DNA of 64,000 nucleotides from Candidatus Parcubacteria bacterium (GTDB lineage Bacteria > Patescibacteriota > Patescibacteriia > Patescibacteriales > UBA12075): assembly GCA_963814275.1 (NCBI GenBank), contig CAWFCE010000001.1, positions 3,307 through 67,306 of the forward strand, in the 5' to 3' direction. Shown one piece after another: positions 12,653 to 41,252 of this stretch (the first letter of the stretch is position 1; every line of letters begins with the position of its first letter). The position numbers and the translations under genes were made by a program. The notes below the pieces were generated by a model. The model did no database searches and was not told the DNA's origin. It saw only the letters and a program-made list of their open reading frames with translations.

Positions 12653-12714
12653 GGATGCAAAAAATATGTGTAAAGAAACAAGGATACAAGATACAAGAAA
12701 TATGAAAAAGAAAC

Positions 12715-12819: not shown

Positions 12820-12859
12820 GTAACTTGTATCCTTAAAACCGTTATACAAAACGATAAAC

Positions 12860-19241: not shown

Positions 19242-19687
19242 AAAAGAATTTATAATTTGTAATTTATAATTTGTAAACAATTTGTAATATTAAATTTGTA
19301 AAAGGTTTATAAATTATAAATTGGATATTGTTTATAAATTACAAATTACGCCTTACAAATTTTTTCCCGGCCTGATTGACGATGTGAAGATCTGGAATTA
19401 TGCGTTAACTCCCGAGCAGGTTAAACAGGAATATAACGGGGGAGCGGTTAAATTTGGAAATTAGAAAAGAATTTATAATTTGTAATTTATAATTTGTAAA
19501 CAATTTGTAATATTAAATTTGTAAAAGGTTTATAAATTATAAATTGGATATTGTTTATAAATTACAAATTACGCCTTACAAATTTTATCCCGGCCTGATC
19601 GATAACGTGAAGATCTGGAATTATGCGTTAACTCCCGAGCAGGTTAAACAGGAATATAATGGAGGAGCGGTTAAATTCGGTAATTAG
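19146..19687 (+). repeat. Tandem array of the 223-bp unit (96-nt gene tail + 127-nt hairpin spacer), 2.4 copies; orphan tails at 19369-19464 and 19592-19687
   Basis: Unit starts are at 19146, 19369 and 19592. Each orphan keeps an open 32-codon frame ending in TAG. Differences between copies are mostly synonymous third-position changes. Confidence 0.9.
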
Positions 19688-19699
19688 ATTACTATAGGC

Positions 19700-19870
19700 A
19701 TCTCCCGCGCCCGCTACCCCTCCGCCCCGCAGCGTGCGGGGCACCTCCCCTTCGTAAGGGGAGGAATCGCTAGATTACAACGGCTTTTCTCCCCTTACGA
19801 AGGGGAGATGTCCCGCTTGCCCGCCGTAGCCTTGGCGTAGGAGGGAAGGGACAGAGGGGTAGCGGGTGTG
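19700..19870. repeat. GC-rich nested palindromic leader of the DUF559 gene
   Basis: The outer arms CCGCTACCCCTC / GAGGGGTAGCGG are complementary. Internal hairpins are CCCCGCA-GCG-TGCGGGG, CTCCCCTT-CGT-AAGGGGAG and CTCCCCTT-ACG-AAGGGGAG. The left half is the reverse complement of window positions 1-78. Confidence 0.8.
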
Positions 19871-21389: not shown

Positions 21390-24300
21390 GTGGGGTATTG
21401 GTCGTTCGACGACCCTTCGGCAGGCTCGGGGCAGGGGGCTGCGGTACATGATGAATCGGCGCAGGGCAATAATGGCACAGTACAGGGGAATCCGGTCCAG
21501 CAGGACGATTCGATGTGCATTTCCGGCAAATGTTTGTATTTTGACGGGATAAACGATTATATCAACATCCCGGACGCGGATTCCCTGAACGTTACCCAGA
21601 CCACGATCGCCGCCTGGGTGAAGAGCGCGACCACGACCGCGGGCAAGTATATAATGGCTAAGAGCCCGCCGTCCACTATCGGCCCGTTGCATTCAGCCGC
21701 CGTCAATGATGACTGGATGTTGTATTACGAAAGCGGCGCCTGGAATTACGGTACCGGCGGCATAGCCTGGTGGGGGCGCTACGGCGGCAAGGGCGAGTAC
21801 TCCGGCTGGCGTTTCGCCCTGGACAGGGCTATTCCCGCCGGCACGGACATTGATATGGCCGGCACCAAGCTCGAGATCTATAAGCCGTCGGGCGAAGCGG
21901 ATATCGATGATTTTTATATCTATGTCGCCGACAGCGCTGATCCGGGGCAGATCACGGGCATCGCGGCCCGTCCCGTCATGGAGGGGGGCTCGACCGCCAC
22001 ATATCCGAATACGAAAGAAGGCGCGGGCGCGGTCAACCATACCGGCTGGTCCGACGGCTGGAACACGATCTTGGTCGGTCCGCTTATCCAGTATCTGGTC
22101 GATACCTATGGCGGCTTGGCGGATGGCGCGCATATCCTGATCCTGGGCGCGGGCGCGGCCTCGGAGCCGGATAATTCCGAATCGATCTGGGCCGGCTTCG
22201 AAAACGGCAGCTATATTCCGAAGTTAACGATAGTTTATACGGATAACAGCGGGAGCGGCCCGGACGTGCCCTACGCCCTGAGCACGGTCGGCGGCGGCCA
22301 ATTCATGGCCCGCGATAGCGGTACGACCTACTCAGCCACTTCAACAACCGATTTGAACGATAACGGATGGCATTATGTGGCCGGCACTTATGATGGCTCC
22401 GATATGAAGATCTATGTAGACGGCAATCTGGAAACGACCAATACGGATTTCTCCGGCGCTTTGCCGGTTATGGCCGGCGTTTTGCGCATTGGCGGCGATT
22501 ACCAGGCCACGCCGGCTAATTTCTTCAATGGTTTCATCGACGAAGTAAAGATTTACCCCTACGCCCGCACGGCCGACCAGATCCGGCAGGACTACGCCGC
22601 CGGCCTGGCCGGGATCAAGTCAAATTCCGGCGTGGCCGCCTCGTTCGGCAGCAAGAATGATAGCTGGTTGACCGACGGGCTGGTCGGGTATTGGAAATTC
22701 GACGAACCCTCGACTGCCGGTACCTACGAGGATTCCTCCGGCAACGACAATACCGGCACGGCCGCCGGCAACGCCTCGACCACCGCCGGGAAGTACGGCA
22801 ATGGCGGGGTGTTTGACGGGGATGGGGACTATATAGATGTTGATAATCCTACGACCGCCATGGATGTGTCGAACGTGACAATATCGGTTTGGGTCAAGCC
22901 AAATGATGTTACATTTGAAGGAGGCATCGTGGTATCACCAATAGATTTTAACAACAAATGGGGGTTGATATGGAATGACGATAGCGGGGGACAACCGATC
23001 GTGGTATCAGATTTGGGGCCTGATATAACAGGGCGGCAGGCGAATATCGCGCCAACCAGGAATCAGTGGCATCATATTGTAGCGATCCCCAGTTCCCACA
23101 AGCTATACGTCGATGGCAGTGAGGTTGAAACACGCGACATTACAGAGAGTTGGATGAGTTATAACGGTAAACTCGGGATCGGCCGTCATTATGATTCTAT
23201 TAATTTTAACGGCCAGATCGACGAAGTTCGCATCTACAACCGCGCCCTGTCGCCGGACGAGGTGAAAGAATTATATGAATGGGCGCCCGGGCCGGTGGCC
23301 TGGTGGAAGTTCGACGAGCTTAATGGCGCGACCGCTTATGATTCGGCCGCTTCGACCGACTACTCGGGCGGGAATAACGGGTATATTAGCGGCGGGGCGA
23401 CGACGTTTCCCACGAACGGAGTACTCGATGACTTTAATCGTAGTAATACAGGGCCGCCGCCGTCAGCGAGCTGGAGCAATTACCTTAATGGCTTATCTGT
23501 TTATAATAATACCGTCGTCAGGGGAAGCGGTTCGGAAAATATCAGTTACTGGAATGAGGATATGGGACTGGACCAGGAGGCGTATTTTACCTTTAACGGC
23601 GCGGCAGGGGTTAGTATGGGTGTCGTACTCAAATTCGACCCCAGCGCCGGTACCGGTTATATTATTTTCTATTACTCCGGAAACGGTAACGTATATATCG
23701 GCAAACTGACCGATAGCTCGACCGCCACTATCTATTCCCGGTGCGTGAACGGCAGCGCTACCTGCACCAGACTTGATTATTTCAGCGCCGGCAGTTTTGC
23801 CGCCGGCGATTCCCTGGGCGCGCACATCGACGCAGCCGGACATATCGCTGTTTACAAGGAAAGCGGCGGTACCTGGACAGAAGTCGGCAACGTGACAGAC
23901 GGCACATATGCCGTCGGGAAGATTGGTCTGCAGATAACCAGCAACTCAACTGTGGCCGGCGCTTTGGCTGACGATTTCGGCGGCGGCAATGCCGCGGGCG
24001 CCCCCCCTGAACCGGCCCTGGGTAAATTCGGGGGAGCGATCGAATTCGACGGCAATGACAATGCCGTGACCGTACCGCCAAGCGCGAAACTGAGTCCGGG
24101 TAACGGATCCTGGACCGCTGCAGCCTGGGCTAAGCCGGAGGATGAAAACCAGCACGCCGTATTGATAATGAATTATGTGGATAGCGACAATTCGCAATGG
24201 AGCCTCTCGTTCAGTAATAGCAGCTGGAGTGGAGCCGGTAAAAGGCTGTGGGGTATGTATACAGAGAGTGAACCAAGCGCTATCTACCGGGCTTCGTACA

Positions 24301-24635
24301 GTACGACTGACCAGATAGACGGCGATTGGCATTTTTATTCCATGATAGCCGACAAGGAGGCGGACGAAGTTAAACTATATGTTGACGGAGTGGAAATAAG
24401 CAAGTCCACCGTTAATTCTGGGGTCTGGCCCGATGTCGATACTTCGGCACATGTCACCAATATCGGCGATTTATCAGGCAGTTATAATTTTAAGGGTCTA
24501 ATCGACGACGTGCGTGTCTACAACTACGCCCGCACCCAGAAACAGATCCTGGAGGACATGGGTAACGGCCCGGCCATTAAAGCAGCCGGTCCTGCACCTG
24601 ACTTTCGACGAGGGCTACGGCGGGACGGCTTATGA
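21390..24635 (+). CDS. Paralog 4 longest intact fragment (LamG modules, nested insert domain, extra jelly-roll domain)
   Basis: The ORF is 1081 aa and contains linker classes a, b, c and d. Confidence 0.65.
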   Translation: MGYWSFDDPSAGSGQGAAVHDESAQGNNGTVQGNPVQQDDSMCISGKCLYFDGINDYINIPDADSLNVTQTTIAAWVKSATTTAGKYIMAKSPPSTIGPLHSAAVNDDWMLYYESGAWNYGTGGIAWWGRYGGKGEYSGWRFALDRAIPAGTDIDMAGTKLEIYKPSGEADIDDFYIYVADSADPGQITGIAARPVMEGGSTATYPNTKEGAGAVNHTGWSDGWNTILVGPLIQYLVDTYGGLADGAHILILGAGAASEPDNSESIWAGFENGSYIPKLTIVYTDNSGSGPDVPYALSTVGGGQFMARDSGTTYSATSTTDLNDNGWHYVAGTYDGSDMKIYVDGNLETTNTDFSGALPVMAGVLRIGGDYQATPANFFNGFIDEVKIYPYARTADQIRQDYAAGLAGIKSNSGVAASFGSKNDSWLTDGLVGYWKFDEPSTAGTYEDSSGNDNTGTAAGNASTTAGKYGNGGVFDGDGDYIDVDNPTTAMDVSNVTISVWVKPNDVTFEGGIVVSPIDFNNKWGLIWNDDSGGQPIVVSDLGPDITGRQANIAPTRNQWHHIVAIPSSHKLYVDGSEVETRDITESWMSYNGKLGIGRHYDSINFNGQIDEVRIYNRALSPDEVKELYEWAPGPVAWWKFDELNGATAYDSAASTDYSGGNNGYISGGATTFPTNGVLDDFNRSNTGPPPSASWSNYLNGLSVYNNTVVRGSGSENISYWNEDMGLDQEAYFTFNGAAGVSMGVVLKFDPSAGTGYIIFYYSGNGNVYIGKLTDSSTATIYSRCVNGSATCTRLDYFSAGSFAAGDSLGAHIDAAGHIAVYKESGGTWTEVGNVTDGTYAVGKIGLQITSNSTVAGALADDFGGGNAAGAPPEPALGKFGGAIEFDGNDNAVTVPPSAKLSPGNGSWTAAAWAKPEDENQHAVLIMNYVDSDNSQWSLSFSNSSWSGAGKRLWGMYTESEPSAIYRASYSTTDQIDGDWHFYSMIADKEADEVKLYVDGVEISKSTVNSGVWPDVDTSAHVTNIGDLSGSYNFKGLIDDVRVYNYARTQKQILEDMGNGPAIKAAGPAPDFRRGLRRDGL

Positions 24636-25158
24636 TTCTTCGGTTTTTCATAATAACGGCACCCTATATCCGGTCGGGGGCGCCGGGTCGAACGATACGG
24701 TCAGCCAGATGTGGGACAAGGGCGGGAAATTCGGGGGGGCTATGGAGTTCGATGGAGAAAACGATTATGTGAGCGTTTCCGATAGTCCCGTGTTCGATCT
24801 GGCGACCGCGAACGGTTATACCTGGTCTGCGTGGATCAAACCGGATAATTTCGATGAATTTAGCGAAGTATTCAGCATGGAAGAAACATTAAATAAAGCA
24901 TTATATCTGTATGTGCATACGACGACTGATGCTGATCTCGGTCCGGTAACAGCCGGAGTTTCGGCTATGTGGGAGAGTGATGCTGACACGGATTTCCTTT
25001 CGGCGCATTCTGTTGACAATGTATTCACGACCGGAAAATATTACCATCTTATTGTCCGTTATGACGGATCACAGACAGTTACAAACAGGTTCCGTATTTA
25101 TGTCGACGGAAATGATGTAACCGATTTAGGGGACGTCGGTTATTCAGAGCATGTCTGA
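24514..25158 (+). CDS. Paralog 4 fragment (LamG module after linker d)
   Basis: The ORF is 214 aa. KQPVLHLTFDEGYGGTAYDSSVFHNNGTL matches the paralog sequence downstream of linker d. Confidence 0.55.
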   Translation: MSTTTPAPRNRSWRTWVTARPLKQPVLHLTFDEGYGGTAYDSSVFHNNGTLYPVGGAGSNDTVSQMWDKGGKFGGAMEFDGENDYVSVSDSPVFDLATANGYTWSAWIKPDNFDEFSEVFSMEETLNKALYLYVHTTTDADLGPVTAGVSAMWESDADTDFLSAHSVDNVFTTGKYYHLIVRYDGSQTVTNRFRIYVDGNDVTDLGDVGYSEHV

Positions 25159-25313
25159 TATTTCTCCCGGAAATATAAGCGTTGGTATTGATTCATATTA
25201 TGCTTCAGATATTTTCGACGGTCTAATCGACGAAGTTTACATATACAACTACGCCCTGTCCGAGGACGAAATCAACACCCTCTATAACCAGGGCCAATCC
25301 GCGGTCATGGGCG

Positions 25314-26867
25314 ATGACGCCAGCCGCGACAACGACGGCACGGCCGTCACCGGCAAGTCCAAGGATTATTGCATTCCCGGCGACACGGCGCAATGCGACC
25401 CGCCGGTCGGGGAATGGAAATTCGACGAGCTCGGCGGCACGACCGCCTACGACACGAGCGGGAACGGGAATGACGGCAGTTTTGGGCGGCGGTACGCCCG
25501 GCTACCGGCCGCAGTGGTGGGATATCGGCCACCAGGGCGGCGCGCTTATGTTTGACGGCAATGATGATTATGTGAATATCAATGACAGTTCAGTTTTAAG
25601 CCTTAATTCGGCTAATGACTATACATGGGAATTTTGGGTAAATTCTACCGACCTGGGTGAAGAGTGGAATGCTGTCTGGTGGCAGGGTTCGGATGCGAAT
25701 AATTATTTTATGATTTTTGCCCATACGATCGACGATACTTACTGGGGAACGGTAAATAACGGATTGAGCGCTGGCTGGACAAACGGCGGCTCTATGTGTT
25801 CACAAAGAAATTCCGTAGATAATTACTTATCACCGAATGAATGGGGGCATGTGGCGGTAACTTATGATGCTTCTAAGGCGGCGGGATCGCGCATCGATTT
25901 CTATATCAACGGGCGATACGCTACCGAAAGCAGAACCAATACCCAGTGTTCCCCGGCCAGCATCAACCCGGATACGATCTGGATCGGGAATGATTCAGAA
26001 TGGCCGGATGAGGAATTCAAGGGGATGGTCGATAATTTTCGGTATTATAATTATCTGCGCACCCCGGCGCAGATCGCCTGGGATTATAATAAAGGCGCGC
26101 CCATCGCCCACTGGACCTTTGACGAATGTTCCGGCGGGACGATCTACGACCAGTCGCGGACCTGCAAGGACACCGGCGACTGCAACAACGGCCAGCTTTA
26201 TCTCGGTACTACTGGCGTCACCGCCACCGGCACCTGCGCCTCGTCGTCGGACAGTTTCTGGTACAACGGGAAGGATGGGAAAGTGAATCATGCGGGGAGT
26301 TTTGATGGGGTAAGTGATTATTTGAGCATTTTGGGTGAATCTGACTTTGATTTTGAGTACAACGATCCATTCTCTATTTCTGTCTGGGTTAAGCGCGATA
26401 CCGCCAATACTCTCGATCAGATTATAGAAAAATTACTTCCTTCAGGCTCCTGGCCGGGTTTATCTTTTTATCTGCCTGGCTCTGATGTCGCATGCAACAA
26501 TTGTGTCAGAATGGATATAAATACCGACACTTTTGGTTATAATTTTACGGCCCAAACAGCTGACAATGCGATTTCGACCGGCGTTTGGTATCATATTGTC
26601 GTAACTTATGATGGTATCCGTATTGATAATCATGATACAGATTGTATAAAGATTTATATTAACGGAGTAACCCAAAATTTAATAACTTCGGAAGAAAACT
26701 TACTTATACATTCGATTCTCAACGATAACGATGTTTTAATCGGTTATGATCCTGACGGATATTATTTCGACGGAAAGATTGACGATGTGAAGATCTGGAA
26801 TTATGCGTTAACTCCCGAGCAGGTTAAACAGGAATATAATGGGGGAGCGGTTAAATTCGGGAATTGA
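25314..26867 (+). CDS. Paralog 4 fragment (last two LamG modules and tail)
   Basis: In this 517-aa ORF, homology starts at about aa 60 (ALMFDGNDDYVNI..). It contains YYNYLRTPAQIAWDYNKGAPIAHWTFDECSGG and the tail KFGN*. Confidence 0.6.
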   Translation: MTPAATTTARPSPASPRIIAFPATRRNATRRSGNGNSTSSAARPPTTRAGTGMTAVLGGGTPGYRPQWWDIGHQGGALMFDGNDDYVNINDSSVLSLNSANDYTWEFWVNSTDLGEEWNAVWWQGSDANNYFMIFAHTIDDTYWGTVNNGLSAGWTNGGSMCSQRNSVDNYLSPNEWGHVAVTYDASKAAGSRIDFYINGRYATESRTNTQCSPASINPDTIWIGNDSEWPDEEFKGMVDNFRYYNYLRTPAQIAWDYNKGAPIAHWTFDECSGGTIYDQSRTCKDTGDCNNGQLYLGTTGVTATGTCASSSDSFWYNGKDGKVNHAGSFDGVSDYLSILGESDFDFEYNDPFSISVWVKRDTANTLDQIIEKLLPSGSWPGLSFYLPGSDVACNNCVRMDINTDTFGYNFTAQTADNAISTGVWYHIVVTYDGIRIDNHDTDCIKIYINGVTQNLITSEENLLIHSILNDNDVLIGYDPDGYYFDGKIDDVKIWNYALTPEQVKQEYNGGAVKFGN

Positions 26868-26955
26868 TGAAGAATTTATAATTTATAATTTATAATTTTC
26901 AAACAATTTATAATATCAAATACTAAATTTATAAATATGACACAGGGAGGGAAAA

Positions 26956-27606
26956 ATGAAGAACGGTTTATTTAAAAACAAATACCGCATCGATTCCAGC
27001 AGGTTAAAAGGACATGATTATTCCGGTGATGGATTGTATTTTATAACGATCTGCACGCATGACAGGGAATTATTTTTCGGCGACGTGGTCGATAATAAAA
27101 TGATTTTGAATGATTTGGGGCAAATGGCGGAAAAATATTGGTTGGAAATCCCACAGCATTTTGAAAATATAGAATTAGACGAATTCATCATCATGCCGAA
27201 CCATGTTCACGGGATAATCGTGATCGATAATACCGCGGATGGCGGAAAACACCGGGTGCGATGCGATGCCCGCGGTTTCACCGATGCCCGCGTCCGTAGA
27301 GACGCGATTAATCGCGTCTCTACGGACGCGGCGCAACATACGGACACGAATGACAATCACACCGGCGGCATTACGGGAAAATATAATCCAATGGGCAAAA
27401 AATCGTTGGGCGAAATTGTCCGGTGGTTTAAAGGCCGTTATAAATTTGAATCAAAAACCATCAATCCCGCATTTGCCTGGCAAACCAGATTTTATGACCA
27501 CGTTGTCCGCAATGAAAATTCGTTGGATAATATCAGACAATATATCATAAATAACCCGGCCCAATGGGAAAATGACCGGAATGATCAGGAAAATATTTGG
27601 ATGTGA
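26956..27606 (+). CDS. IS200-like / REP-associated tyrosine transposase (RayT-type Y1 HUH enzyme), intact copy
   Basis: The ORF is 216 aa. It has FKNKYRIDSSRLKGHDYS..GLYFITICT, the HUH motif in MPNHVHGIIVI, and the C-terminal WQTRFYDHVVRNE carrying the catalytic-type Tyr. GGAGGG lies 6 nt upstream of the ATG. Confidence 0.8.
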   Translation: MKNGLFKNKYRIDSSRLKGHDYSGDGLYFITICTHDRELFFGDVVDNKMILNDLGQMAEKYWLEIPQHFENIELDEFIIMPNHVHGIIVIDNTADGGKHRVRCDARGFTDARVRRDAINRVSTDAAQHTDTNDNHTGGITGKYNPMGKKSLGEIVRWFKGRYKFESKTINPAFAWQTRFYDHVVRNENSLDNIRQYIINNPAQWENDRNDQENIWM

Positions 27607-27794
27607 AAATAAATTATCAATATTCAATTATCAATGATCAATCAATTGTCAATTAACCAATTAACTAATGATGTTAAAAATAGCCAATTAGATGATTAAA
27701 TAATTAATTGGGTTACTGCTTGCCCGCCGAAGTATTAACGCAGGCGGGGGTTACTGAAAACTGATAATTAAAATTGTGATTATAACCGAAAACA

Positions 27795-29099
27795 ATGAAA
27801 TATATTGATAAAAAATCAATAAAAACCATCTTAGCAGCCGTCTTCACTCTCGCAATCCTAGCCGTTGGGGCTTTGTGGTATTTTCACCATGGTAACGTGA
27901 AGGGTGTAGAAGCCGGCTGGTGGAATGATTCCTGGTCCTACCGCAAAGCCATCGTGATCAATCACAGCTACGTAACAGGAGATCTGGAGAATTTCCCGGT
28001 GCTTATTTCCCTGACTGATGCTAGTTTAGGATCCCACGCCCAGGCAGACGGCGATGATATTATTTTTATCGACGACGAAGGCAAAAAGTTAAGCCACGAG
28101 ATCGAAACCTTCGCCACCTCGACCGGGGTGCTTGTCGCCTGGGTGAAGATTCCGAGTTTGTCCTCGACCGACGATACACCGCTCTATATGTATTACGGCA
28201 ATGCGGGCGTCGGGAATCAGGAGGATTCGACGAACGTGTGGAATGATGATTACCAGGCGGTCTGGCATATGAATAATACCGATATGGCCACCTCGACCGA
28301 TTCCACCAGTCATGGGAATGACGCATATGGAAACGGATCGCCGCTTGCTTATCCGAACGGTCAAATAGGCGGCGGACTCGAATTTGATGATGAGAATGAT
28401 CTTTACTATCAAGCTACCGGAACTTCATTGGAATTTAACGGCGATATAATTGTTAGTTTTTGGATGAATACTTCCGGGTTGAGCGAAACCCAGCATACCG
28501 GGATAGTCGAAAGAAGCGATTGGGGCGTGCATACCGGCTGGGATTTTTTCGATAACGGCGGGGAATTGAGCTTTGCCGTTCTTGGCAACGGAACATTCTA
28601 TGAGGCCAAAATTGACCATGATATAGTCAATGACGGCGAGTGGCACTATATAAACGGAATCAGATTAGGCACGGATGTATATCTATATATCGACGGCCAA
28701 AATATAGCCCAGGATAATTCAACTAATTTTGATCTCTGCACGACAGAATATATGACATACGGCTGGGTTTATGGAGCGACTTCAGATACGATTTTACTTG
28801 ATGAGCTGAGAATTTCCGATACGGTACCTCCGGAAGAATGGGTAGAGACCGAATTCAACAACCAAAACTCGCCCCAAACCTTCCTCTCCGTCCAGGCCGA
28901 GGAGGTCGGGCCGGGGTCGGTCGGGTACTGGTCGTTCGACGAGGGGTACGGCACAACCGCGCACGACGAGAGCGGGCAGGGCAATGACGGCACGATCACG
29001 GGAGCCGAGTGGCAGGATGAGAGCATGTGCGTGAGCGGCAAGTGTCTGATGCTCGACGGCAGCGGCGATTATGTCGAGGTGGGGGATGTGGATTTTTAA
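27795..29099 (+). CDS. DUF2341 + LamG paralog 5, truncated 5' part (stops just after linker class a)
   Basis: The ORF is 434 aa. The first 110 nt are identical to paralog 1. It ends ..CLMLDGSGDYVEVGDVDF* exactly where a hairpin-led insertion begins. Confidence 0.85.
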   Translation: MKYIDKKSIKTILAAVFTLAILAVGALWYFHHGNVKGVEAGWWNDSWSYRKAIVINHSYVTGDLENFPVLISLTDASLGSHAQADGDDIIFIDDEGKKLSHEIETFATSTGVLVAWVKIPSLSSTDDTPLYMYYGNAGVGNQEDSTNVWNDDYQAVWHMNNTDMATSTDSTSHGNDAYGNGSPLAYPNGQIGGGLEFDDENDLYYQATGTSLEFNGDIIVSFWMNTSGLSETQHTGIVERSDWGVHTGWDFFDNGGELSFAVLGNGTFYEAKIDHDIVNDGEWHYINGIRLGTDVYLYIDGQNIAQDNSTNFDLCTTEYMTYGWVYGATSDTILLDELRISDTVPPEEWVETEFNNQNSPQTFLSVQAEEVGPGSVGYWSFDEGYGTTAHDESGQGNDGTITGAEWQDESMCVSGKCLMLDGSGDYVEVGDVDF

Positions 29100-29105
29100 A
29101 ATTTT

Positions 29106-29207
29106 TAATTCACCTAATTCCATATTCACCTAATAAAATGTCCAGTAACCAAATAATTTATTTTCGAATTAGATATTATGGAATTTTATTGGAAATTAGG
29201 TGAATTA
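29106..29207. repeat. Inverted repeat at the left edge of the insertion that splits paralog 5/6
   Basis: TAATTCACCTAATTCC (29106-29121) pairs with GGAAATTAGGTGAATTA (29191-29207), with one bulge and a ~69-nt loop. Confidence 0.7.
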
Positions 29208-29243
29208 GATAAATTAGAAATTAATAACAACCAGTTTAGAATA

Positions 29244-32200
29244 ATGAAATCTATAAAATTCACAATCTACTTCTTCGCCTTTCTGATCTCGTTCAGCCTT
29301 GTTAAGCCTGCCTTTGCCGCGCGCCTCTGGTCGTCGGGGTTCGAGCTGGACAGCCTGACCGCCGGCATGGAGTGGACTGCGATCGAAAATACCGGCGCTA
29401 CCATGTCTATCCAGGGGACGACCAAGCGGAGCGGAGATTATGCTTTGCGCTGCAATCCCAACGGCACGAATTGGGGTACTGTCCAATTCCAATCGTCCGC
29501 CCTGGGCGGCTATACCTATTATGTCAGAACATACCTGAATATCCACACCAGCATGTCGACCGAAGACGCGATCGCGATTTTAGGAACCAGTAATTATTCG
29601 AGCTCCGTCGGTTTGGCGCTCAATACTGACGATACGATCGATCTATATTATTATAGCGGTTCCGTTCATGTTCTCGGAACAAGCGATCTTTTGGAAAAAG
29701 ACACCTGGTATATGTTGGAATTTTCCTATAATTACAGCACCGGAGCCGTCGCCGCCAGATTGAACGGCAGCCAGTTCGCCGGCGGATCGTCGGTAGCCTC
29801 GCAAGCCTGGAATTATTTGTTTATCGGCGAAGGCTTCGGCAGCGGTTATACCGGCGACATATATTTCGACGATGTCGCGTTTAACGATTCAACCGGTTCG
29901 GACCAGAATTCCTGGCCCGGCGAGGGCAGTATCGTGCATGTTTATCCCGACTCCGCGGGCGATAATGACGATTCGGCACAAAGCCCGAATGGCTATCTGG
30001 AGGTAGACGAACAGCCGACTCCGGATGGCGACACCAGTTATGCCAATATCGATAATAACAGCGATATACTCGATGTCGACTGTGAATCATATTCGAGTGC
30101 GGGGATCGGGTCCGGCGATACGGTCACGCTGGTCCAGGTCGGCTACCGGGCCAGGGGTGCTGACGCAACCAGCCGGGCCGGTGTTCTTCGCATCAAAGGA
30201 ACGCCCGGCGGAACGATTTCGGAAAGTTCGACCCTGACGCGAAGCTCCGGAAGCTACCAGACCAATGCCCCGAGCCCGTACGGCTATAAATTGACCGCAT
30301 ATGTCAACCCTGAGGATAGCTTAGCCTGGGAGCCGAATGATATCAGTTCAATGCAGATCGGTTTTCGGGCAACGGACGCGGCACCGGATATCTACCTTAC
30401 CTCTCTCTGGGCCTTGGTCGAGTACGTACCGGTCGGGGGCGGAGGCGGCAGCGATGAAGAAACGGCTGAAGCGATGGTCTTTACGGTTTCCGCCTGGGTC
30501 AAGCCGATCGGCAGTATCGCGAATAAAGCGATCGCGGTCAAAGATGATGAGATCCGGCTGGTCACGGACTCAAGCGGACATCCGTTATGCCAAATACATG
30601 ACGGGACAAGCTGGCGCGCGGCCGCTACTTCGAGCCAGGCACTCGCGCTGAACGAATGGGCGCACGTGGCCTGCGCCTATGACCGGTCAAATCTGAAAAT
30701 CTACGTCAATGGCAGCGAGACCGCGAGCCGGGAGGAAACGAGCGACGTCTATAACACAGCCAATTCCTGGTTTTTCGGCCATGACGAAAGCGCCGCGTAC
30801 GGCGATTTCCAGGGCTCGATCGACGAATATAAAATCTACCCCTACGCCCGGACGGCCGACCAGATCCGGCAGGACTACGCCGCCGGTTTGGCCGGGATCA
30901 AATCAAATAGCGGCGTGGCCGCCAGCTTTGGGTCGCGGTCCGACTTGTGGATGAGCGACGGGCTGGTCGGGTATTGGAAATTCGACGAGCCGACGACTGC
31001 CGAGACCTACGAAGACTCCTCCGGTAACGGCAACACCGGCACGGCTGCCGGCAATGCCTCGACCACGGCCGGGAAATACGGCAACGGCGGGGTGTTTGAT
31101 GGGGACGGGGATTATGTAGAAATTTCTGATTTAGATGCATTTAAAACTATTTCATTTTGGGTTAAACCGGAAATAAGAAGCGGCTATGATTATTATTTTG
31201 TTACAGATTATGACGGATCTGATTTTGAAATTTCTGTTGATGATCATGGGTATCTGGTTGTCGGTGATTTTATATATAAAAATGGAACTTATTTGGATAT
31301 AGATGACTATATCGACACATGGAATCATATCGTTGTGTCCTTAGAAAACAATAAATACAGGTTTTATTTTAACGGTGAATTTATTCAGGAGGGTAATTTT
31401 GGCAGTTTTACAGGTTCTCATCCAGCTTATATCGGCGTATGGGGGACTGATTATAGCAGCGGTGACTTGCATTATTTCAACGGCCAAATCGACGAAGTCC
31501 GCATTTACAACCGCGCCCTGTCCCCGGACGAAGTGAGGAAATTATACGACTGGGCGCCGGGGCCGGTGGCGTGGTGGCGCTTCGACGAGCTCAGCGGCTC
31601 CACTGTCTACGACAGTGCCGCAAGTTCGACTTATTCGGGCGGCAACCACGGAAGTTTTGGTGGCGGCAGCGCCAACCCGACTTGGACACAAGGGAAGTAT
31701 GGCGGGGCGCTCAGATTTGATGGGAGTGATGATTATGTGTCATTGCCCGATTCCATGGTCCTTAACAGCCTTGATACGAGCCTGACCGACGTTACGGTCG
31801 GCGCCTGGGTGAAACTGAATTCCGATCCCGACGCGAGAGTCGGAATCATTTCCCTGGGCGATGTCGGCAACGACTACTGGGCCGCGACTGTCGGTACGGA
31901 TGTAGATAACAATAAATTCTCATACTATGTCGATCAGACAGGCAGCGGGACCAGTTCCGCTACGGCTTTGCCGGTCGGCGAATGGCATTACGTGGCCTTT
32001 TCCCGGACCGTGGACGGAACGGTTAATTTCTACTATGACGGGAATCCGGACGGGACGGAAACGGGTACGGTCAGCTCGGCGGCAAACGGAACGAAGTCGA
32101 TCGGCATCAGGCTGGAAGCGCCGGTTTCTTTCAACGGTCTGATCGACGATATCAAGATCTACAATTACGCCCGCACCCAGAAACAGATACTGGAAGACAT

Positions 32201-33200
32201 GACTAACGGCCCTGCTCTTAAATCTCCAATCTTAAATTTTAAATTTGAAGAGGGCTACGGCGATACGGTTTATGATTCATCCGGGAACGGGAAGAACGCT
32301 ACGCTTCATCCCGGCGCGACCGGCGGCAATCAGAGCGTGTCCGCGATGTGGGACCAGGGCGGCAAATTCGGCAAAGCGGTCGAATTCGACGGACTCAGCG
32401 ATTATATATCCTTCCCGTTCGACGATATTTACGGAACTTCTTTCGAACGGAACAATACGGTAGCGGCCTGGTTCAAGACGTCCAGCACGAGTTTCCAGGC
32501 GATATTCGGCGCCCGGGAATCGGTCGAGGGAAGCGAAGATTTGTACAGGCTTGATACTAACGAAGGACGCGTTGAGGCGGTGATACGCACCGAGCGCTAC
32601 ACCGGAGACGGAGATGCGGTCTTCGTCCGGACTCCGGTTGCCTATAATGACAGCGAGTGGCACCAGGCCGCCATGACCATGAACGACAGGATATTGTCGC
32701 TTTATGTCGACGGGGTGAAGCAGGGATCGACGGCGGTCGCCGGATATAGCTCCGAGATAAACGTCAACTACATCGGCGCCGAGGAAAACGACGGCGGGCC
32801 GGGCAACGGTTATGGCAGCTTCTTCGAGGGCCTGATCGACGATGTCCGCATCTACAACTACGCCCTCGACGAGGACGAAGTGAAAACCCTCTATAACCAG
32901 GGCGCGGCCGCGGTCATGAGCGCGCCCCAGCCCAAAGACAACGACGGCACGACCGTGACCGGCGCGGCCGGGAAATACTGCATCCCCGGCGACACGGCGC
33001 AGTGCGACGCCCCGGTCCTCGAGATGGATTTCAACGAAATGGCCGGCACGACCACGCATGACCGGTCCGGCCATGGCAATGACGGATATTTCGTTAGTCA
33101 GGCCAGCTCGCCGGTCTGGAAAGAGGCCAATAATTGCCATTCCGGTTCGTGCCTCATGTTCGACGGGAGCGATGATTATATTAGCTATAATTCAAGTTAA
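29244..33200 (+). CDS. Secreted protein: novel ~400-aa N-terminal jelly-roll-like domain fused to LamG modules 1-5 of the paralog scaffold
   Basis: The signal peptide MKSIKFTIYFFAFLISFSLVKPAFA starts at ATG 29244; the ORF-track start 29178 lies inside the hairpin. From ~30470 the sequence resumes LamG module 1 (MVFTVSAWVKP..) and then linker classes b to e. It ends at an in-frame TAA (33198-33200) inside a LamG module. Confidence 0.8.
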   Translation: MKSIKFTIYFFAFLISFSLVKPAFAARLWSSGFELDSLTAGMEWTAIENTGATMSIQGTTKRSGDYALRCNPNGTNWGTVQFQSSALGGYTYYVRTYLNIHTSMSTEDAIAILGTSNYSSSVGLALNTDDTIDLYYYSGSVHVLGTSDLLEKDTWYMLEFSYNYSTGAVAARLNGSQFAGGSSVASQAWNYLFIGEGFGSGYTGDIYFDDVAFNDSTGSDQNSWPGEGSIVHVYPDSAGDNDDSAQSPNGYLEVDEQPTPDGDTSYANIDNNSDILDVDCESYSSAGIGSGDTVTLVQVGYRARGADATSRAGVLRIKGTPGGTISESSTLTRSSGSYQTNAPSPYGYKLTAYVNPEDSLAWEPNDISSMQIGFRATDAAPDIYLTSLWALVEYVPVGGGGGSDEETAEAMVFTVSAWVKPIGSIANKAIAVKDDEIRLVTDSSGHPLCQIHDGTSWRAAATSSQALALNEWAHVACAYDRSNLKIYVNGSETASREETSDVYNTANSWFFGHDESAAYGDFQGSIDEYKIYPYARTADQIRQDYAAGLAGIKSNSGVAASFGSRSDLWMSDGLVGYWKFDEPTTAETYEDSSGNGNTGTAAGNASTTAGKYGNGGVFDGDGDYVEISDLDAFKTISFWVKPEIRSGYDYYFVTDYDGSDFEISVDDHGYLVVGDFIYKNGTYLDIDDYIDTWNHIVVSLENNKYRFYFNGEFIQEGNFGSFTGSHPAYIGVWGTDYSSGDLHYFNGQIDEVRIYNRALSPDEVRKLYDWAPGPVAWWRFDELSGSTVYDSAASSTYSGGNHGSFGGGSANPTWTQGKYGGALRFDGSDDYVSLPDSMVLNSLDTSLTDVTVGAWVKLNSDPDARVGIISLGDVGNDYWAATVGTDVDNNKFSYYVDQTGSGTSSATALPVGEWHYVAFSRTVDGTVNFYYDGNPDGTETGTVSSAANGTKSIGIRLEAPVSFNGLIDDIKIYNYARTQKQILEDMTNGPALKSPILNFKFEEGYGDTVYDSSGNGKNATLHPGATGGNQSVSAMWDQGGKFGKAVEFDGLSDYISFPFDDIYGTSFERNNTVAAWFKTSSTSFQAIFGARESVEGSEDLYRLDTNEGRVEAVIRTERYTGDGDAVFVRTPVAYNDSEWHQAAMTMNDRILSLYVDGVKQGSTAVAGYSSEINVNYIGAEENDGGPGNGYGSFFEGLIDDVRIYNYALDEDEVKTLYNQGAAAVMSAPQPKDNDGTTVTGAAGKYCIPGDTAQCDAPVLEMDFNEMAGTTTHDRSGHGNDGYFVSQASSPVWKEANNCHSGSCLMFDGSDDYISYNSS

Positions 33201-33206
33201 TCTAAT

Positions 33207-34967
33207 TTGAATTTTGTAGCCCCTGCTACGATTTCGTTTTGGATGAAATCAGGCTATGATCCAGGTAATCAAGCTGAAAGGGTTTATAGTATTAGTCAAG
33301 GGGGTGCCACCAGTAACTATTTTTATATTACTTTGGGGAAGCCAAGCGCATCCGGATTGAGCAACCAACTTGTTTGTATCGCATCAACCGTAGGGGGAAC
33401 AAATTCCGCTTGTTACACAACATCAGACCGTAATCAGCTTTTTAATAATGAGTGGCACCAGGTGGCAATCGTTACCGACGGCTCTGAATGGAAACTTTAT
33501 ATCGATAATACGGAGAAAACCTTATCTGACGATTTGGGTAGCGGCAATATCGGCACATACGGAGCGGTTAGTTTTGCTAATAATATCAAAATCGGTTCTT
33601 ATTACGGAAATACCAATTCAGATTTTTATCTTGGTATGTTGGACCATTTTAGTATCTTCAACTACGCCCGCACCCCGGCGCAGATCGCCTGGGATTATAA
33701 CGGCGGCAAGCCGATCGCCGAATGGCGGTTCGACGAATGTTCCGGAGGGATCATCCACGATGAAAGCGGGAATGGATATGACGGCACGCTTAACCTTGGC
33801 GTTACCGGAATTATTACAGTTGGCACTTGCGCCAGCTCAAGCAATTCATTCTGGTATTTAGGCAAGAACGGCGCCTATAAAGCGGCTGGGAGTTTCGACG
33901 GGGCCAGCGACTATATTGACATCGGCGATACAAACCTCAATATCGAATCCATCGGTTTTTGGATATTCCCGCACAACACAACCAATTACGTCATCGACCT
34001 GGACGGCGGCACCCATACCGTCGCCCTCGCGAACGGACGAATAAGCGCCAACGGCTTTGCCGATCCGCAGATCTATGTAAACGGAAAATCAGGCAGGAGC
34101 ATTACCCGGATGGCCTGGCAGCACGTGTTAATAACGACGGATACCGCTTTCGAAGCGAGTAATCTCCGCCTCGGCCGGATCGGCGGCAACTATTACGACG
34201 GCCTGATCGACGACGTCAGATTCTTTAATTACCCCCTGACGCCGGAACAGATCAAGACCGAATATACGGGAGGAGCGATGCGCATTGGCGGCGTACCCTC
34301 GCAGACCGTGGTTACCGCCGGCACCTGCACCCAGCGATTCAGCGACGACTTCAACCGGCCGGATAACGACAATATCGGTCCGGACTGGATTGAGAACGGA
34401 AGCGGCAATTTAAAAATCGCCAGCAATGTATTGCGTTTCGATAAGGACGCCGATTACGAATGGGGCAGTGCCGACTCCGTATCCGAGCTTATGTCCGATA
34501 CCCAATATGCGAAGTTCACGATTACTGATTTCGGCGGTTATGTTTTGCCAAATTCCGCAGAATTAATTTTGAGAAGCGGTGCGGTGCAATATTTGATTTA
34601 TATAAGCCGGGACTCAAGCGATAATATTTACTGGAAGGACAATGTGGGCGATATCCAGGGAACTACTATCAGCGTGGATAACGGCGTATCCGTCGCCGCC
34701 ATGGTCAGAGGCGCGGGCGATGACACCAACGTGAGCATTTGGCTGGATATGACCGAAAATACGCCTTTCAGCTCCGGCGCGCTTTGCCTTGATACCGGCA
34801 AGCCCTGCTGGGATTCGGCTTCGGACGCGCCGGATATTTATTTTACCAATAATCCCGTAAATGCCGCGGACGACGGAAAAAATTTCGGGATCGGCGTCTG
34901 GGAGACTTACGGTGTTCTTGGCAACAATATAGATATCGATGATTACTTCGCCGGGGACTGCGAGTGA
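33207..34967 (+). CDS. Continuation of the 29244 gene after a single in-frame TAA: LamG modules, linker f, tail-like motif, extra C-terminal jelly-roll domain
   Basis: This ORF is in the same frame as 29244..33200. ..DGSDDYISYNSS*SNLNFVAPATISFWMK spans a single LamG module. It contains FNYARTPAQIAWDYNGGKPIAEWRFDECSGG and FFNYPLTPEQIKTEYTGGAMRIGG, then a ~225-aa extra domain. Confidence 0.75.
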   Translation: MNFVAPATISFWMKSGYDPGNQAERVYSISQGGATSNYFYITLGKPSASGLSNQLVCIASTVGGTNSACYTTSDRNQLFNNEWHQVAIVTDGSEWKLYIDNTEKTLSDDLGSGNIGTYGAVSFANNIKIGSYYGNTNSDFYLGMLDHFSIFNYARTPAQIAWDYNGGKPIAEWRFDECSGGIIHDESGNGYDGTLNLGVTGIITVGTCASSSNSFWYLGKNGAYKAAGSFDGASDYIDIGDTNLNIESIGFWIFPHNTTNYVIDLDGGTHTVALANGRISANGFADPQIYVNGKSGRSITRMAWQHVLITTDTAFEASNLRLGRIGGNYYDGLIDDVRFFNYPLTPEQIKTEYTGGAMRIGGVPSQTVVTAGTCTQRFSDDFNRPDNDNIGPDWIENGSGNLKIASNVLRFDKDADYEWGSADSVSELMSDTQYAKFTITDFGGYVLPNSAELILRSGAVQYLIYISRDSSDNIYWKDNVGDIQGTTISVDNGVSVAAMVRGAGDDTNVSIWLDMTENTPFSSGALCLDTGKPCWDSASDAPDIYFTNNPVNAADDGKNFGIGVWETYGVLGNNIDIDDYFAGDCE

Positions 34968-35025
34968 TCGATTTGATTAGGTTAGGACGGAATATAACGG
35001 CGGAGCGGTTAAATTCGGTAATTAA
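34964..35025 (+). pseudogene. Internally deleted orphan copy of the LamG gene tail
   Basis: Positions 34990-35025 encode EYNGGAVKFGN*. The upstream ..GATCGATTTGATTAGGTTAGGACG is a deleted version of the GLIDDV..EQVKQ portion. Confidence 0.7.
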
Positions 35026-35168
35026 TAATCCAATGATCCAATGATCCAGTGACCCAATCAATATTTAATATCAAATATATAATTTTCAAACCGACGAAGT
35101 GTTTAAATATTTGATATTGAATATTAGATATTGATTGGATCATTGGGTTACTGGATTATTGAAAATTA
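35026..35168. repeat. AT-rich imperfect inverted repeat (CCAATGAT/AATAATCCA word family) upstream of the dead RayT copy
   Basis: The left arm AATAATCCAATGATCCAATGATCCAGTGACCCAATCAATATTTAATATCAAATAT pairs with the right arm ATATTTGATATTGAATATTAGATATTGATTGGATCATTGGGTTACTGGATTATT. Confidence 0.8.
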
Positions 35169-35459
35169 ATGGAAGGGTTATTTAAAAATAAATACCGTAT
35201 CGATTCAACCAGATTAAAAGATTATGATTATTCGCAAGACGGATCATATTTCGTAACGATTTGCACGAAGGAAAGGGAATTGTTTTTCGGGGAGGTCCAA
35301 AATAATAAAATGATTTTGAATGATTTGGGGGTAATAGCGGAAAAATATTGGTTGGAAATCCCACAGCATTTTGAAAATACAGAATTAGACGAATTCATCA
35401 TCATGCCGAACCATATTCACGGGATAATCGTGATCGATAATGACCGCGGACGGCGGTGA
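35169..35459 (+). pseudogene. RayT-type transposase, dead copy (N-terminal half only)
   Basis: This 96-aa ORF matches 26956-27240 up to the HUH motif (MPNHIHGIIVIDN). It then has a frameshift and no C-terminal Tyr-containing half. The next gene starts at 35736. Confidence 0.8.
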
Positions 35460-35484
35460 TGCGGCCGATCGTGGCAACGAAAAT

Positions 35485-35700
35485 GTCCGTGGTAGAGACG
35501 TTGCAATGCAACGTCTCTACGCGGCGCAACCCACCGAACCCGAATGCCGGTCTGGCGATATCAATCGCACCGTCCGTGGTAGAGACGTTGCAATGCAACG
35601 TCTCTACGCGGCGCAACCCACCGAACCCGAATGCCGGTCTGGCGATATCAATCGCACCGTCCGTGGTAGAGACGTTGCAATGCAACGTCTCTACGGACGC
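35485..35700. repeat. Tandem 87-bp repeat x2.5, each unit carrying the palindrome GTAGAGACGTTGCAATGCAACGTCTCTAC
   Basis: Unit starts are at 35485, 35572 and 35659 (period 87 = 29 codons). The repeat occupies the position of the intragenic palindrome of the intact RayT (27291-27328). Confidence 0.9.
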
Positions 35701-35735
35701 GGATACCGCAATAATCATCGTTCCTACCGCGTGCA

Positions 35736-41033: not shown

Positions 41034-41073
41034 TTAAACAAAACGTTGATAATTTTTAAATAAATGATAACGA

Positions 41074-41211
41074 ATTTTTAAATTTTGTAATTTTTAATTT
41101 TTAAATAAATTTTAAATCTTAATTTTTAAAGTCTAACTAAGTAGTACAGTAGTTTAAGACATTAAAAATTTAGATTTATTTACAAAATTAAAAATTAAAA
41201 ATTTAAAAATT
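41074..41211. repeat. AT-rich imperfect inverted repeat (TTTTTAAA/AATTTT word family) downstream of paralog 7
   Basis: The left arm GAATTTTTAAATTTTGTAATTTTTAATTTTTAAATAAA.. is complementary, with bulges, to the right arm ..TTTATTTACAAAATTAAAAATTAAAAATTTAAAAATTC. It may function as a terminator. Confidence 0.65.
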
Positions 41212-41252
41212 CTATCACGATGAAAGTTTCAGGCAATTATGTCTGTTTTTTG

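Follow-up and report, generated by a model that had tools for sequence, protein, structure and literature searches.

About 1.37 kb of unrelated DNA lies in frame inside one DUF2341-LamG paralog of the window (the whole stretch of DNA analyzed, 64 kb in length) and cuts this gene into an upstream stub and a downstream chimera. We consider it probable that the arrangement arose by a single insertion of an ordinary gene fragment of ~1.37 kb into a formerly continuous paralog, through one-off illegitimate recombination. The features of the region are collected in Table 1.

Table 1. Features of the split paralog and its insert; positions refer to the window.
Position	Strand	Feature	Basis
27795-29099	+	Truncated paralog (displaced stub, 434 aa): TM helix at the N-terminus, DUF2341, LamG module 0, linker a, and of LamG module 1 only the first strand	PF10102 aa 85-148, PF13385 aa 201-349
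28839-29077	+	GC-rich conserved linker a, common to other paralogs	80% identity to 36777-37015; more matches at 15035, 7057, 1532, 21299
29043-29096	+	CLMLDGSGDYVEVGDVDF, first strand of LamG module 1 (~profile positions 1-17), ending ORF 27795-29099	PF13385 alignment of healed construct
29097-29099	+	TAA stop closing the stub	ORF translation
29100-29243	+	AT-rich spacer (144 nt, 21.5% GC) with long imperfect palindrome, apparently brought with the insert	Composition, repeat and folding analysis
29244-29318	+	Signal peptide MKSIKFTIYFFAFLISFSLVKPAFA, start ATG 29244, predicted cleavage before ARLW	Homolog comparison; AF2 helix residues 2-18
29244-33200	+	Chimeric ORF, 1318 aa: signal peptide, inserted unit, module 1 without first strand, linkers b-e, three further LamG modules	ORF and Pfam
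29319-29918	+	Domain 1 (aa 26 to ~225), LamG/ConA-like jelly roll resembling Cip1	AF2 pLDDT >90; Foldseek; Pfam
29919-30431	+	Domain 2 (aa 226-396), second β-sandwich ending in family motif LWALVEYVP	Alignment, AF2, BFVD matches
30432-30470	+	VGGGGGSDEETAE, Gly-rich disordered junction zone	pLDDT <50 at aa 401-409; paralog alignments start at EAMVF/TVSAWVK
30471-30866	+	Remainder of LamG module 1, resuming at AMVFTVSAWVKP (~30471)	PF13385 profile positions 19-150
33198-33200	+	In-frame TAA between FDGSDDYISYNSS and SNLNFVAPATISFWMK, in a later module, within the loop joining strands 1 and 2	ORF comparison
33207-34967	+	Rest of the same paralog, same frame, without own export signal	ORF and Pfam

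Split of one paralog inside LamG module 1

The initial annotation had stated that ORF 27795-29099 stops at the start of LamG module 1 after linker a, and that the downstream gene re-enters the same module at about 30470; both statements held. The break point lies inside the folded LamG domain, 20 nt past the conserved linker a, with the left junction somewhere in 29091-29115 and the right junction somewhere in 30432-30470. Analyzed alone, the truncated module 1 matched positions 19-150 of the PF13385 profile (LamG_3 / Laminin_G_3) with 99.7 bits. When the two halves were joined in silico, the healed protein aligned with positions 1-150 at 107.4 bits, and another version of it with positions 3-150 at 101.6 bits. 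The upstream fragment contributes about the first 17 profile positions and the downstream fragment the rest.

Alignment to paralog 7 showed all six linkers to be collinear, with offsets for linkers a to f of 7938, 6588, 6645, 6678, 6645, and 6639. Only one step, of 1350 nt, was found; it lies between linkers a and b, and the remaining offsets stay within 90 nt (6588-6678). Measured against paralogs 1 and 3, the same step amounted to 1287 and 1307 nt, and apart from the insert the flanks are collinear with the uninterrupted paralogs. Furthermore, positions 27600-28271 are 87% identical to positions 233-904 of paralog 1, the healed gene would encode about 1930 aa, which is near paralog 2 (1919 aa), and the ORFs at 27795, 29244, and 33207 share a common reading frame. 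In 19 other modules of the window, the motif FDGxxD..(9-24 aa)..T[IV]S.W.K is uninterrupted, as described before, although the spacing is wider than the 9-15 aa given then. Because the profile match ends at about position 17 and resumes at 19, the offsets show a single step, and the healed length is close to that of a paralog, ORF 27795-29099 and the downstream ORF are, judged from their sequences, the parts of one formerly continuous paralog rather than unrelated genes. No empty-site allele was found; identity to the healed junction reached only 43% in its best relative.

The linker offsets and the split PF13385 match also back the earlier description of the products as a truncated DUF2341 protein and a chimeric secreted LamG protein. 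Whether the N-terminus swap then proposed is a functional one is uncertain, as the chimera is itself interrupted by the in-frame TAA at 33198.

This TAA (33198-33200) had been overlooked in the initial annotation. It is located within a 25-nt hairpin (33189-33213), in a loop equivalent to the insertion loop. At the 3′ end of the same gene, the conserved gene end is present twice, with an extra segment or domain in between.

Because of the premature TAA and the remodelled 3′ end, the chimeric paralog may be decaying and drifting towards a pseudogene. In the chimera's favour, the inserted unit retains every family-invariant residue and models confidently; the right join had a one in three chance of being in frame without selection.

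The inserted unit and its spacer

As had been annotated, the insert has its own start codon and a cleavable signal peptide in frame with the rest. The predicted cleavage point falls exactly where homologs lacking a signal peptide begin (M-ARLW). About one third of the family members carry a signal peptide which ends in AxA directly before ARLWSSG; the others start with M-ARLW.

The AF2 model of the unit reached a pLDDT of 92.4, with the fold ending at about aa 396. Over its whole length, structural matches to phage virion proteins were found in BFVD (TM to query 0.66-0.70, 368-395 columns). Domain 1 matched 3zyp (Cip1) in Foldseek (E = 1.6e-7, TM to target 0.67), and PF13385 (E = 8e-5) and PF21340 in Pfam, both below threshold; this N-terminal half of the inserted unit is a remote member of the LamG/ConA-like superfamily. 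The initial annotation had described an unrelated jelly-roll-like domain of ~400 aa. It was right that the sequence is foreign to module 1, but instead of a single unrelated domain there are two β-sandwiches, the first with remote kinship to LamG. That the unit is a variant of LamG module 1 was rejected: tblastn against the window returned nothing below E = 0.4, and likewise no further copy of the unit in the window.

Database searches placed the unit in a family found in phages and CPR bacteria. It matched phrog_14065 with E = 5e-51 over aa 26-397, and 175 homologs were found, most of them 385-445 aa long and covering 90-98% of the query. Homologs begin with ARLWSSGFE, preceded or not by a signal peptide, and end with WALVEY plus 13-48 aa. 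Both ARLWSSGFE and LWALVEYVP are present in the window copy, which keeps 12 of the 12 invariant columns of an 82-sequence alignment. In tblastn, the unit was 33-35% identical over 100% of its length to products of the Streptomyces phages Hiyaa (gp13), Keanu, Spocter, and Galactica. Homologs occurred in phage context (loci L001, L002, and 35 IMG/VR loci; phage genomes of ~35-50 kb) as well as in cellular context (loci L003 and L013-L020; CPR contigs), and the family is also found as tandem modules inside giant Patescibacteria proteins. Among the window ORFs scanned, no phage hallmark genes were detected. The usual tail of 13-48 aa and the stop codon are absent from the window copy; here, VEYVP is followed by 13 disordered residues and then directly by LamG strand 2. 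On this comparison, the insert is best read as a complete two-β-sandwich member, ~390 aa in length, of a phage/CPR family, minus tail and stop codon.

Additionally, codon usage of the insert was compared. Its RSCU correlation with the large ORFs of the window was 0.86, above 95% of host 1.2-kb chunks, whereas homologs elsewhere gave correlations from -0.58 to +0.47. The insert uses host codon preferences and is at home in this genome. No donor copy of the unit is visible within the 64 kb. The donor may be a phage with host-like codon usage or an intragenomic gene; the two are inseparable because the unit's nearest relatives, at 46-47% identity, come from viral contigs and identity to cellular ones goes up to 39%.

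Upstream of the unit, the inverted repeat annotated at 29106-29207 was found again, with perfect arms of 14 nt (29106-29119 / 29194-29207) inside a longer imperfect palindrome (29092-29119 / 29194-29221). The motif ATTCACCTAAT forms a direct repeat at 29108 and 29124 and has an inverted copy at 29195-29205. Folded as single-stranded DNA, the spacer region gave -18.1 kcal/mol (z = -3.3), and only one of 200 shuffles folded as well. Most intergenic regions in the window are ordinarily filled with long AT-rich palindromes, each composed of a short motif, and these typically follow paralog stop codons; those that recur are unrelated in sequence to the spacer palindrome. The exact ATTCACCTAAT motif has no other occurrence in the 64-kb window, and neither spacer nor motif has a second copy there or in 64 related loci. 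In style, the spacer with its palindrome resembles native intergenic regions, and the spacer presumably serves as terminator and promoter. Thus, the hairpin described as leading the insertion is real, but such palindromes are too common in intergenic regions for it to be read as the head of a mobile unit.

Origin of the arrangement

In the course of events we favour, the ancestral DUF2341-LamG paralog would have run without a break, in collinearity with paralogs 1, 3, and 7. A fragment consisting of an AT-rich intergenic region with a genome-typical palindrome, a start codon, a signal peptide, and the complete two-domain body would have entered LamG module 1 in the loop that connects its first two strands. 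This fragment would have been cut just past its last conserved motif, with loss of tail and stop codon. The right join would be in frame by chance, and translation from the new ATG would continue through the LamG modules that follow. The former N-terminal part (TM anchor, DUF2341, LamG0, and linker a) would be left as an upstream orphan stub ending at the first stop in the AT-rich DNA, and the remainder would form a signal-peptide-led chimera, the first LamG domain of which lacks its first strand. As mechanism we infer illegitimate recombination, either non-homologous or by microhomology, or else that a break captured a DNA fragment; the donor would be a gene that had long resided in the same genome or was adapted to its codon usage. 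The history may also be older and more complex, since unit-LamG / unit-DUF2341 fusions occur naturally elsewhere (P0082; L014).

The same layout could have been produced, without any insertion, by two independent deletions in an ancestral tandem of paralog A, a free-standing signal-peptide-plus-unit gene, and paralog B, one deletion removing the 3′ part of A from module 1 onwards and the other fusing the unit gene to B at its module 1. We regard this as unlikely. The paralogs do stand in tandem, several of them being fragmented or rearranged, the unit is ordinarily a free-standing gene, and the spacer resembles a native intergenic region with a palindrome of the kind usually placed after paralog stops. 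However, the two unrelated ends would have to agree within about 2 residues in homologous modules (profile ~17 versus 19), and the product would have to match one paralog exactly in linker order and total length, whereas one insertion accounts for the same data by a single event.

Less likely still is an assembly artefact, i.e. a chimeric metagenome join with a junction absent from the genome. Linkers are 80-87% identical across the window and many paralogs are fragmented, a type of region badly handled by assemblers. Moreover, no independent copy of the junction was found: the protein of ORF 27795-29099 was missing from the protein collection searched, and the 24-mer adjoining the junction was absent from both contig collections searched. 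On the other hand, both junctions lie outside repeated sequence. Exact repeats in common with other parts of the window are at most 20 nt long near the left junction, at a distance of 58 nt upstream, and at most 13 nt long at the right junction; a repeat-driven misjoin is therefore unlikely. Two misjoins would also need to restore both frame and collinearity, and the insert resembles the host genes in codon usage, unlike homologs from other organisms.

Signs of a mobile element were largely lacking. The right end of the insert has no hairpin or inverted repeat (fold z = +0.96), the search for a target-site duplication returned only chance-level matches of 4-6 nt (GATG, GTCGAG) that are not present at both ends, no recombinase or transposase is encoded by the insert, and multiple copies sharing its ends were found neither in the window nor in 64 related loci. 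The idea of a cassette insertion, raised in the initial annotation, is consequently not supported. Genes for REP-associated tyrosine transposases (RAYT) are located at 26956-27606 and 35169-35459.

Known kinds of element were rejected as well: an intein by the stop codons at 29097, 29106, and 29115; a self-splicing intron by Rfam, where no family reached the gathering score for the insert region; an IS200/IS605 or REPIN-type element by the presence of one hairpin only, without further copies in the window or in 64 related loci; and an integron gene cassette by the absence of a core site (no GTTRRRY or complement in the spacer, read by eye) and of an integrase among the ORFs scanned, and by the hairpin lying 5′ of the insert ORF and not 3′ as in such a cassette.

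We give very little credence to the proposal that either a cassette of spacer, signal peptide, and unit, targeting the strand 1-strand 2 loop of LamG modules and possibly mobilised by RAYT, brings about a programmed swap of the anchoring or export end of giant surface proteins, or stub and chimera complement each other by a strand. In the former case, the TAA at 33198, which lies in a hairpin within the corresponding loop, may be a related footprint; in the latter, the free first strand of the stub may complete the LamG domain of the chimera and tether the phage-type binding unit to the membrane anchor. Least credible of all is a mobile cassette of hairpin, signal peptide, and unit moving together into the first LamG loop, by means of the flanking RAYT via single-stranded DNA or of an integron-like system: the significant left-end hairpin, the two RAYT genes, another lesion of the same gene in the corresponding loop, located in a small hairpin whose AATTCA..TGAATT core is similar, and the segment inserted between duplicated gene ends at the 3′ end are outweighed by the bare right end, the missing target-site duplication, core site and integrase, the single-copy state of motif, spacer, and unit, the recurrence in the window of palindromes of unrelated sequence only, and a coding sequence without own stop and tail, which is atypical for a cassette.

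Meaning and relation to known systems

A single insertion would make this locus a clean example of how modular CPR/Patescibacteria-like surface proteins gain new ends, a membrane-anchored giant being converted into an orphan stub and an exported chimera. It would represent ordinary domain shuffling, or gene fission and fusion, and not a new mobile element, and is known from one metagenomic contig. Furthermore, the analysis brought to light an uncharacterised two-domain unit of ~380 aa which heads phage virion proteins, including Hiyaa gp13 and those of many uncultivated phages of 35-50 kb. Since the same unit heads phage virion proteins and occurs in tandem in giant CPR proteins, our data suggest that adhesion or glycan-binding modules are common to CPR bacteria and phages, many of them on Patescibacteria-binned contigs.

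With REPIN/RAYT and IS200/IS605 systems, the locus shares an AT-rich hairpin at one end of the insert and RAYT genes on both sides of the gene, at 1.5 kb upstream and 0.2 kb downstream. It differs in having one hairpin instead of two, in being single-copy, and in a coding cargo of 1.2 kb without transposase; the spacer hairpin is also unrelated to the GTAGAGACG..CGTCTCTAC hairpins near the RAYT genes.

Phrog_14065 and Hiyaa gp13 ('minor tail protein') share with the insert an N-terminal unit of ~380 aa, a full-length sequence match, the same terminal motifs, and the same two-β-sandwich fold. The phage versions, mostly without signal peptide, stand at the head of proteins with fibre-like repetitive C-terminal extensions and are encoded between capsid and head-tail adaptor genes, whereas the window copy carries a signal peptide, lies in a cellular island without phage genes, and is fused to LamG modules.

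In Rhs/CdiA-type polymorphic proteins, a new end is recombined beside a conserved boundary and the displaced old end is kept as a truncated orphan. The present case resembles them in concerning large surface proteins with multiple paralogs, where a new end has entered and the old end survives next door as an orphan; the extra domain between two conserved copies of the gene end at the 3′ end has their classic form. In contrast to these systems, the N-terminus is replaced here and not a C-terminal toxin tip, no toxin/immunity pair is present, the break falls within a folded domain and not at a dedicated motif, and there is no sign of recurrence.

Natural fusions in Patescibacteria (P0082; ORFs in L014, L016, and L018) likewise join signal peptide and unit to LamG and/or DUF2341 in one polypeptide. 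They show clean module boundaries, and in P0082 the unit is followed by a complete WWKLDDGSGT linker and a complete LamG. Unlike in these fusions, the join in the window cuts LamG behind the first strand, and the matching half remains upstream.

LamG module 1 split by an inserted segment

The first ORF of the split DUF2341-LamG gene (ORF1) ends with TAA 29097-29099 immediately after ..CLMLDGSGDYVEVGDVDF, and a chimeric ORF of 1318 aa is opened by ATG 29244; both share their reading frame with the third ORF of the gene, starting at 33207. The initial annotation had correctly described a new start, a signal peptide and an N-terminal body in frame with the LamG remainder. In 19 other LamG modules of the window, the pattern FDGxxD, 9-24 residues and T[IV]S.W.K is uninterrupted, as proposed, with the spacing wider than the 9-15 residues originally stated. 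In the split gene, ORF1 ends with the first half of this pattern, and the other half (..AMVFTVSAWVKP) lies about 1.37 kb downstream. A Pfam search assigned the downstream piece to positions 19-150 of the LamG_3 profile (99.7 bits). Joining it in silico to the end of ORF1 gave a healed module covering positions 1-150 (107.4 bits), equal to the intact module 1 of paralog 7 (99.2 bits over positions 1-151), which confirmed that module 1 is split.

DNA-level conservation among the paralogs is confined to the GC-rich linkers a-f between the LamG modules. Relative to paralog 7, the offsets of these linkers are 7938, 6588, 6645, 6678, 6645, and 6639, which amounts to a single step of 1350 nt between linkers a and b; the corresponding step is 1287 and 1307 nt relative to paralogs 1 and 3. 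Apart from a single insert of about 1.37 kb, the split gene thus follows the same linear order as its paralogs. The junctions fall within the ranges given in the table, and candidate healed joins take out 1365-1371 nt. The first 18 nt past the ORF1 stop (DF-stop-NF-stop) are identical to the NFDNFD loop of paralog 7 at 12 of 18 nt; this low-complexity, AT-rich similarity is not decisive and merely widens the range of the left junction.

Feature coordinates, window and related loci
Feature	Position	Remarks
ORF1	27795-29099	TM helix, DUF2341 (PF10102), one LamG_3 domain, conserved linker a
Left junction	29091-29115	range
Right junction	30432-30470	range
Intergenic AT-rich palindromes	5890, 11945, 12673, 19243, 19454, 35031, 41072, 43310	examples
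Recurrent palindromic element	5890-5990, 11945-12063, 19243-19361, 19466-19590, 43310-43430	partial copy 26870-26930
Palindromes of the same style	12673-12826, 27600-27700, 35031-35161, 41072-41212	unique sequence
RAYT genes	26956-27606, 35169-35868	IS200-like REP-associated tyrosine transposases, either side of the split paralog
Tandem-unit ORFs	L016 2314-12423, L018 2341-8367	related loci

The inserted unit and its relatives

The 409 aa from 29244 gave no Pfam match above threshold and no relative elsewhere in the 64-kb window; 175 database homologues were found (35-47% identity), most of them 385-445 aa long and covering 90-98% of the query. On these grounds, the reading of the insert as a variant of LamG module 1 was rejected. 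About two thirds of the homologues begin with M-ARLWSSGFE; in about one third, a signal peptide with a terminal AxA directly precedes ARLW. The window copy is of the latter type, with AxA immediately preceding ARLW. All homologues end with ..LWALVEY(VP), beyond which there is either a 13-48-aa tail or a long extension. No invariant residue is missing from the window copy, which spans the full conserved length and lacks the tail and a stop codon: VEYVP is followed by 13 residues, GGGGGSDEETAE (AF2 pLDDT <50), and then directly by LamG strand 2. The predicted chimeric protein includes the stretch VEYVPVGGGGGSDEETAEAMVFTVSAWVK. A tail motif (..LNL.G.LKI.GG..I..) is common to the four signal-peptide members inspected (P0018, P0023, P0028, P0035); it was not seen in the M-ARLW phage-type members of the family alignments A1/A2 and is absent from the window copy. 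This tail may serve in sorting or anchoring.

In the AF2 model (pLDDT 92.4), the unit folds into two beta-sandwich domains. The first of them, a jelly roll of ConA/LamG type, has Cip1 (3zyp) as its nearest solved structure and gives sub-threshold matches to PF13385 and PF21340. Instead of the one jelly-roll-like domain of about 400 aa initially proposed, the insert holds two domains, which form the complete body of the family. The search for relatives proposed earlier furthermore led to phages: the whole model resembles phage virion proteins in BFVD (TM 0.66-0.70), the unit matches phrog_14065 (E = 5e-51), and its full-length alignment with gene 13 of Streptomyces phages Hiyaa, Keanu, and Spocter and with gene 11 of Galactica shows 33-35% identity. 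The annotation reads "minor tail protein" for the Hiyaa and Galactica genes and "hypothetical protein" for those of Keanu and Spocter; gene 13 of Hiyaa lies between the major head protein and head-tail adaptor genes. Ordinary LamG modules of the window match PHROGs too, so that such a match by itself does not prove a phage origin.

Homologues occur on phage-type contigs (locus L001 with an SU10-type adaptor and an SLT domain, L002 with a terminase and a Mu-like protease) and at 35 IMG/VR loci on contigs of 30-50 kb, where the unit is usually N-terminal in proteins with extensions of 130-1450 aa. Cellular Patescibacteria carry it as free-standing, signal-peptide-led genes (L003/L005), and near-complete Patescibacteria genomes contain two to three tandem copies within ORFs of 2000-3400 aa (L013, L015, L016, L018-L020). 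The unit is combined with DUF2341 and LamG_3 in one 1732-aa protein (L014, 5812-11010) and precedes a complete linker and LamG in protein P0082. It is thus a module common to phages and CPR surface proteins, and the recognition of this uncharacterised module is a useful by-product of the analysis. The window copy is closest to viral relatives, with 46-47% identity, compared with at most 39% for cellular ones.

Further lesions and the surrounding island

An in-frame TAA at 33198-33200 cuts the chimeric ORF (FDGSDDYISYNSS-stop-SNLNFVAPATISFWMK, window 33159-33248) in the loop of a later LamG module equivalent to the insertion site. It lies within a near-perfect 25-nt hairpin (33189-33213, AATTCAAGTTAATCTAATTTGAATT), which is the most structured among 19 module loops tested (z = -3.4). 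An alternative genetic code or read-through was rejected, as TGA, TAG, and TAA all end the same conserved gene end across the paralogs. The 3' end is remodelled as well (34225-35026): a diverged version of the canonical paralog end (..TPEQIKTEYTGGAMRIGG) precedes an additional domain of about 225 aa lacking a Pfam match; then come a TGA and, 17 nt on, a near-canonical second copy of the end in another frame (TEYNGGAVKFGN with two stops). This arrangement resembles the result of an insertion that displaced the gene end and left it as an orphan.

After paralog stops or before starts, an AT-rich palindromic element of about 120 nt recurs (TTTGTAAACAATTTGTAAT...ATTACAAATTG..TGTTTATAAATTACAAATTACGCCTTACAAAT), which resembles a REPIN or MITE; at 19200-19700, the canonical gene end plus this element forms a tandem array (period 223 nt; copies at 19205, 19428, and 19651). 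A perfect 22+22-nt palindrome (27288-27331) lies within the ORF of the first RAYT gene; the second gene, which is truncated, precedes three 87-nt repeats that all contain GTAGAGACGTTGCAATGCAACGTCTCTAC (35492-35694). The paralogs at 12860-19241 and 21390-26867 are each broken up into three or four ORFs that overlap or adjoin, for example by a frameshift in linker a (~15177-15280); the breaks reflect either pseudogene formation or errors of sequencing or assembly in this repetitive island. Between 27800 and 41000, linkers with 75-87% DNA identity alternate with unrelated variable LamG modules of 31-60% GC (31% at 31100-31400, 60-66% in linkers), which suggests gene conversion on the linkers or module exchange. 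Beyond the LamG island and ahead of a pair of giant beta-helix proteins (43440-48419 and 48370-58401, the second with 3343 aa), a 122-aa ORF (42090-42458) matches PF05635, the family of 23S rRNA intervening-sequence proteins (E = 1e-12).

Origin of the insert and fate of the products

Codon usage of the unit correlates with that of the large genes of the window (RSCU r = 0.86, above 95% of the host 1.2-kb chunks; -0.58 to +0.47 for homologues elsewhere), hence the donor had probably been long resident in, or adapted to, the host genome. The ORF1 protein was absent from the protein collection searched, the 24-mer TATGTCGAGGTGGGGGATGTGGAT was absent from the genome-contig and metagenome-contig collections, and a search with the healed-junction protein returned nothing above 43% identity.

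The arrangement is best explained by a single event of illegitimate recombination or fragment capture. An intergenic region, signal peptide and unit, devoid of tail and stop, would have landed in the first loop of LamG module 1, the right join being in frame by chance. Two deletions within a tandem array are less parsimonious, as their end points in homologous modules would have to coincide to within two residues. Misassembly is disfavoured: neither junction falls in repetitive sequence (the longest exact repeats are 20 nt, located 58 nt away, and 13 nt), and codon usage of the insert fits the host.

A targeted mobile cassette would be the most interesting reading and is the least supported one. 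The 144-nt spacer between ORF1 and ATG 29244 (21.5% GC) harbors a palindrome, ATTCACCTAAT, and the inverted repeat is real (perfect arms of 14 nt, fold z = -3.3). However, AT-rich palindromes built from direct and inverted copies of a short motif fill most intergenic regions of the window, typically just after paralog stops. The spacer therefore resembles an ordinary intergenic region of the host genome and looks like one that travelled with the inserted gene. Folding revealed no hairpin at the right end, a target-site duplication was not found around the insert, and no second copy of the motif or spacer was detected by motif search in the window and related loci or by blastn-short with the spacer, nor was there a second unit in the window. 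An Rfam scan matched no RNA family, the insert contains no recombinase, and the flanking RAYT genes go with unrelated GC-rich palindromes. The right-hand tail was considered as a partial target duplicate (DGSGDY..F and GGGSDE..F, equal spacing); the similarity, 22/39 nt by hand, is not significant. The hairpin not being special and the other tests being negative, the "hairpin-led" "cassette" mechanism of the initial annotation is unsupported.

Signal peptide and unit now head the LamG remainder, as the proposed N-terminus swap implies, but its function is uncertain: since the first LamG domain of the chimera lacks its first strand, TAA 33198 interrupts the ORF and the 3' end is remodelled, the gene is no less likely to be decaying into a pseudogene than to represent a functional swap. 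The event is of a known type, namely domain shuffling with gene fission and fusion, in which a displaced orphan end remains.
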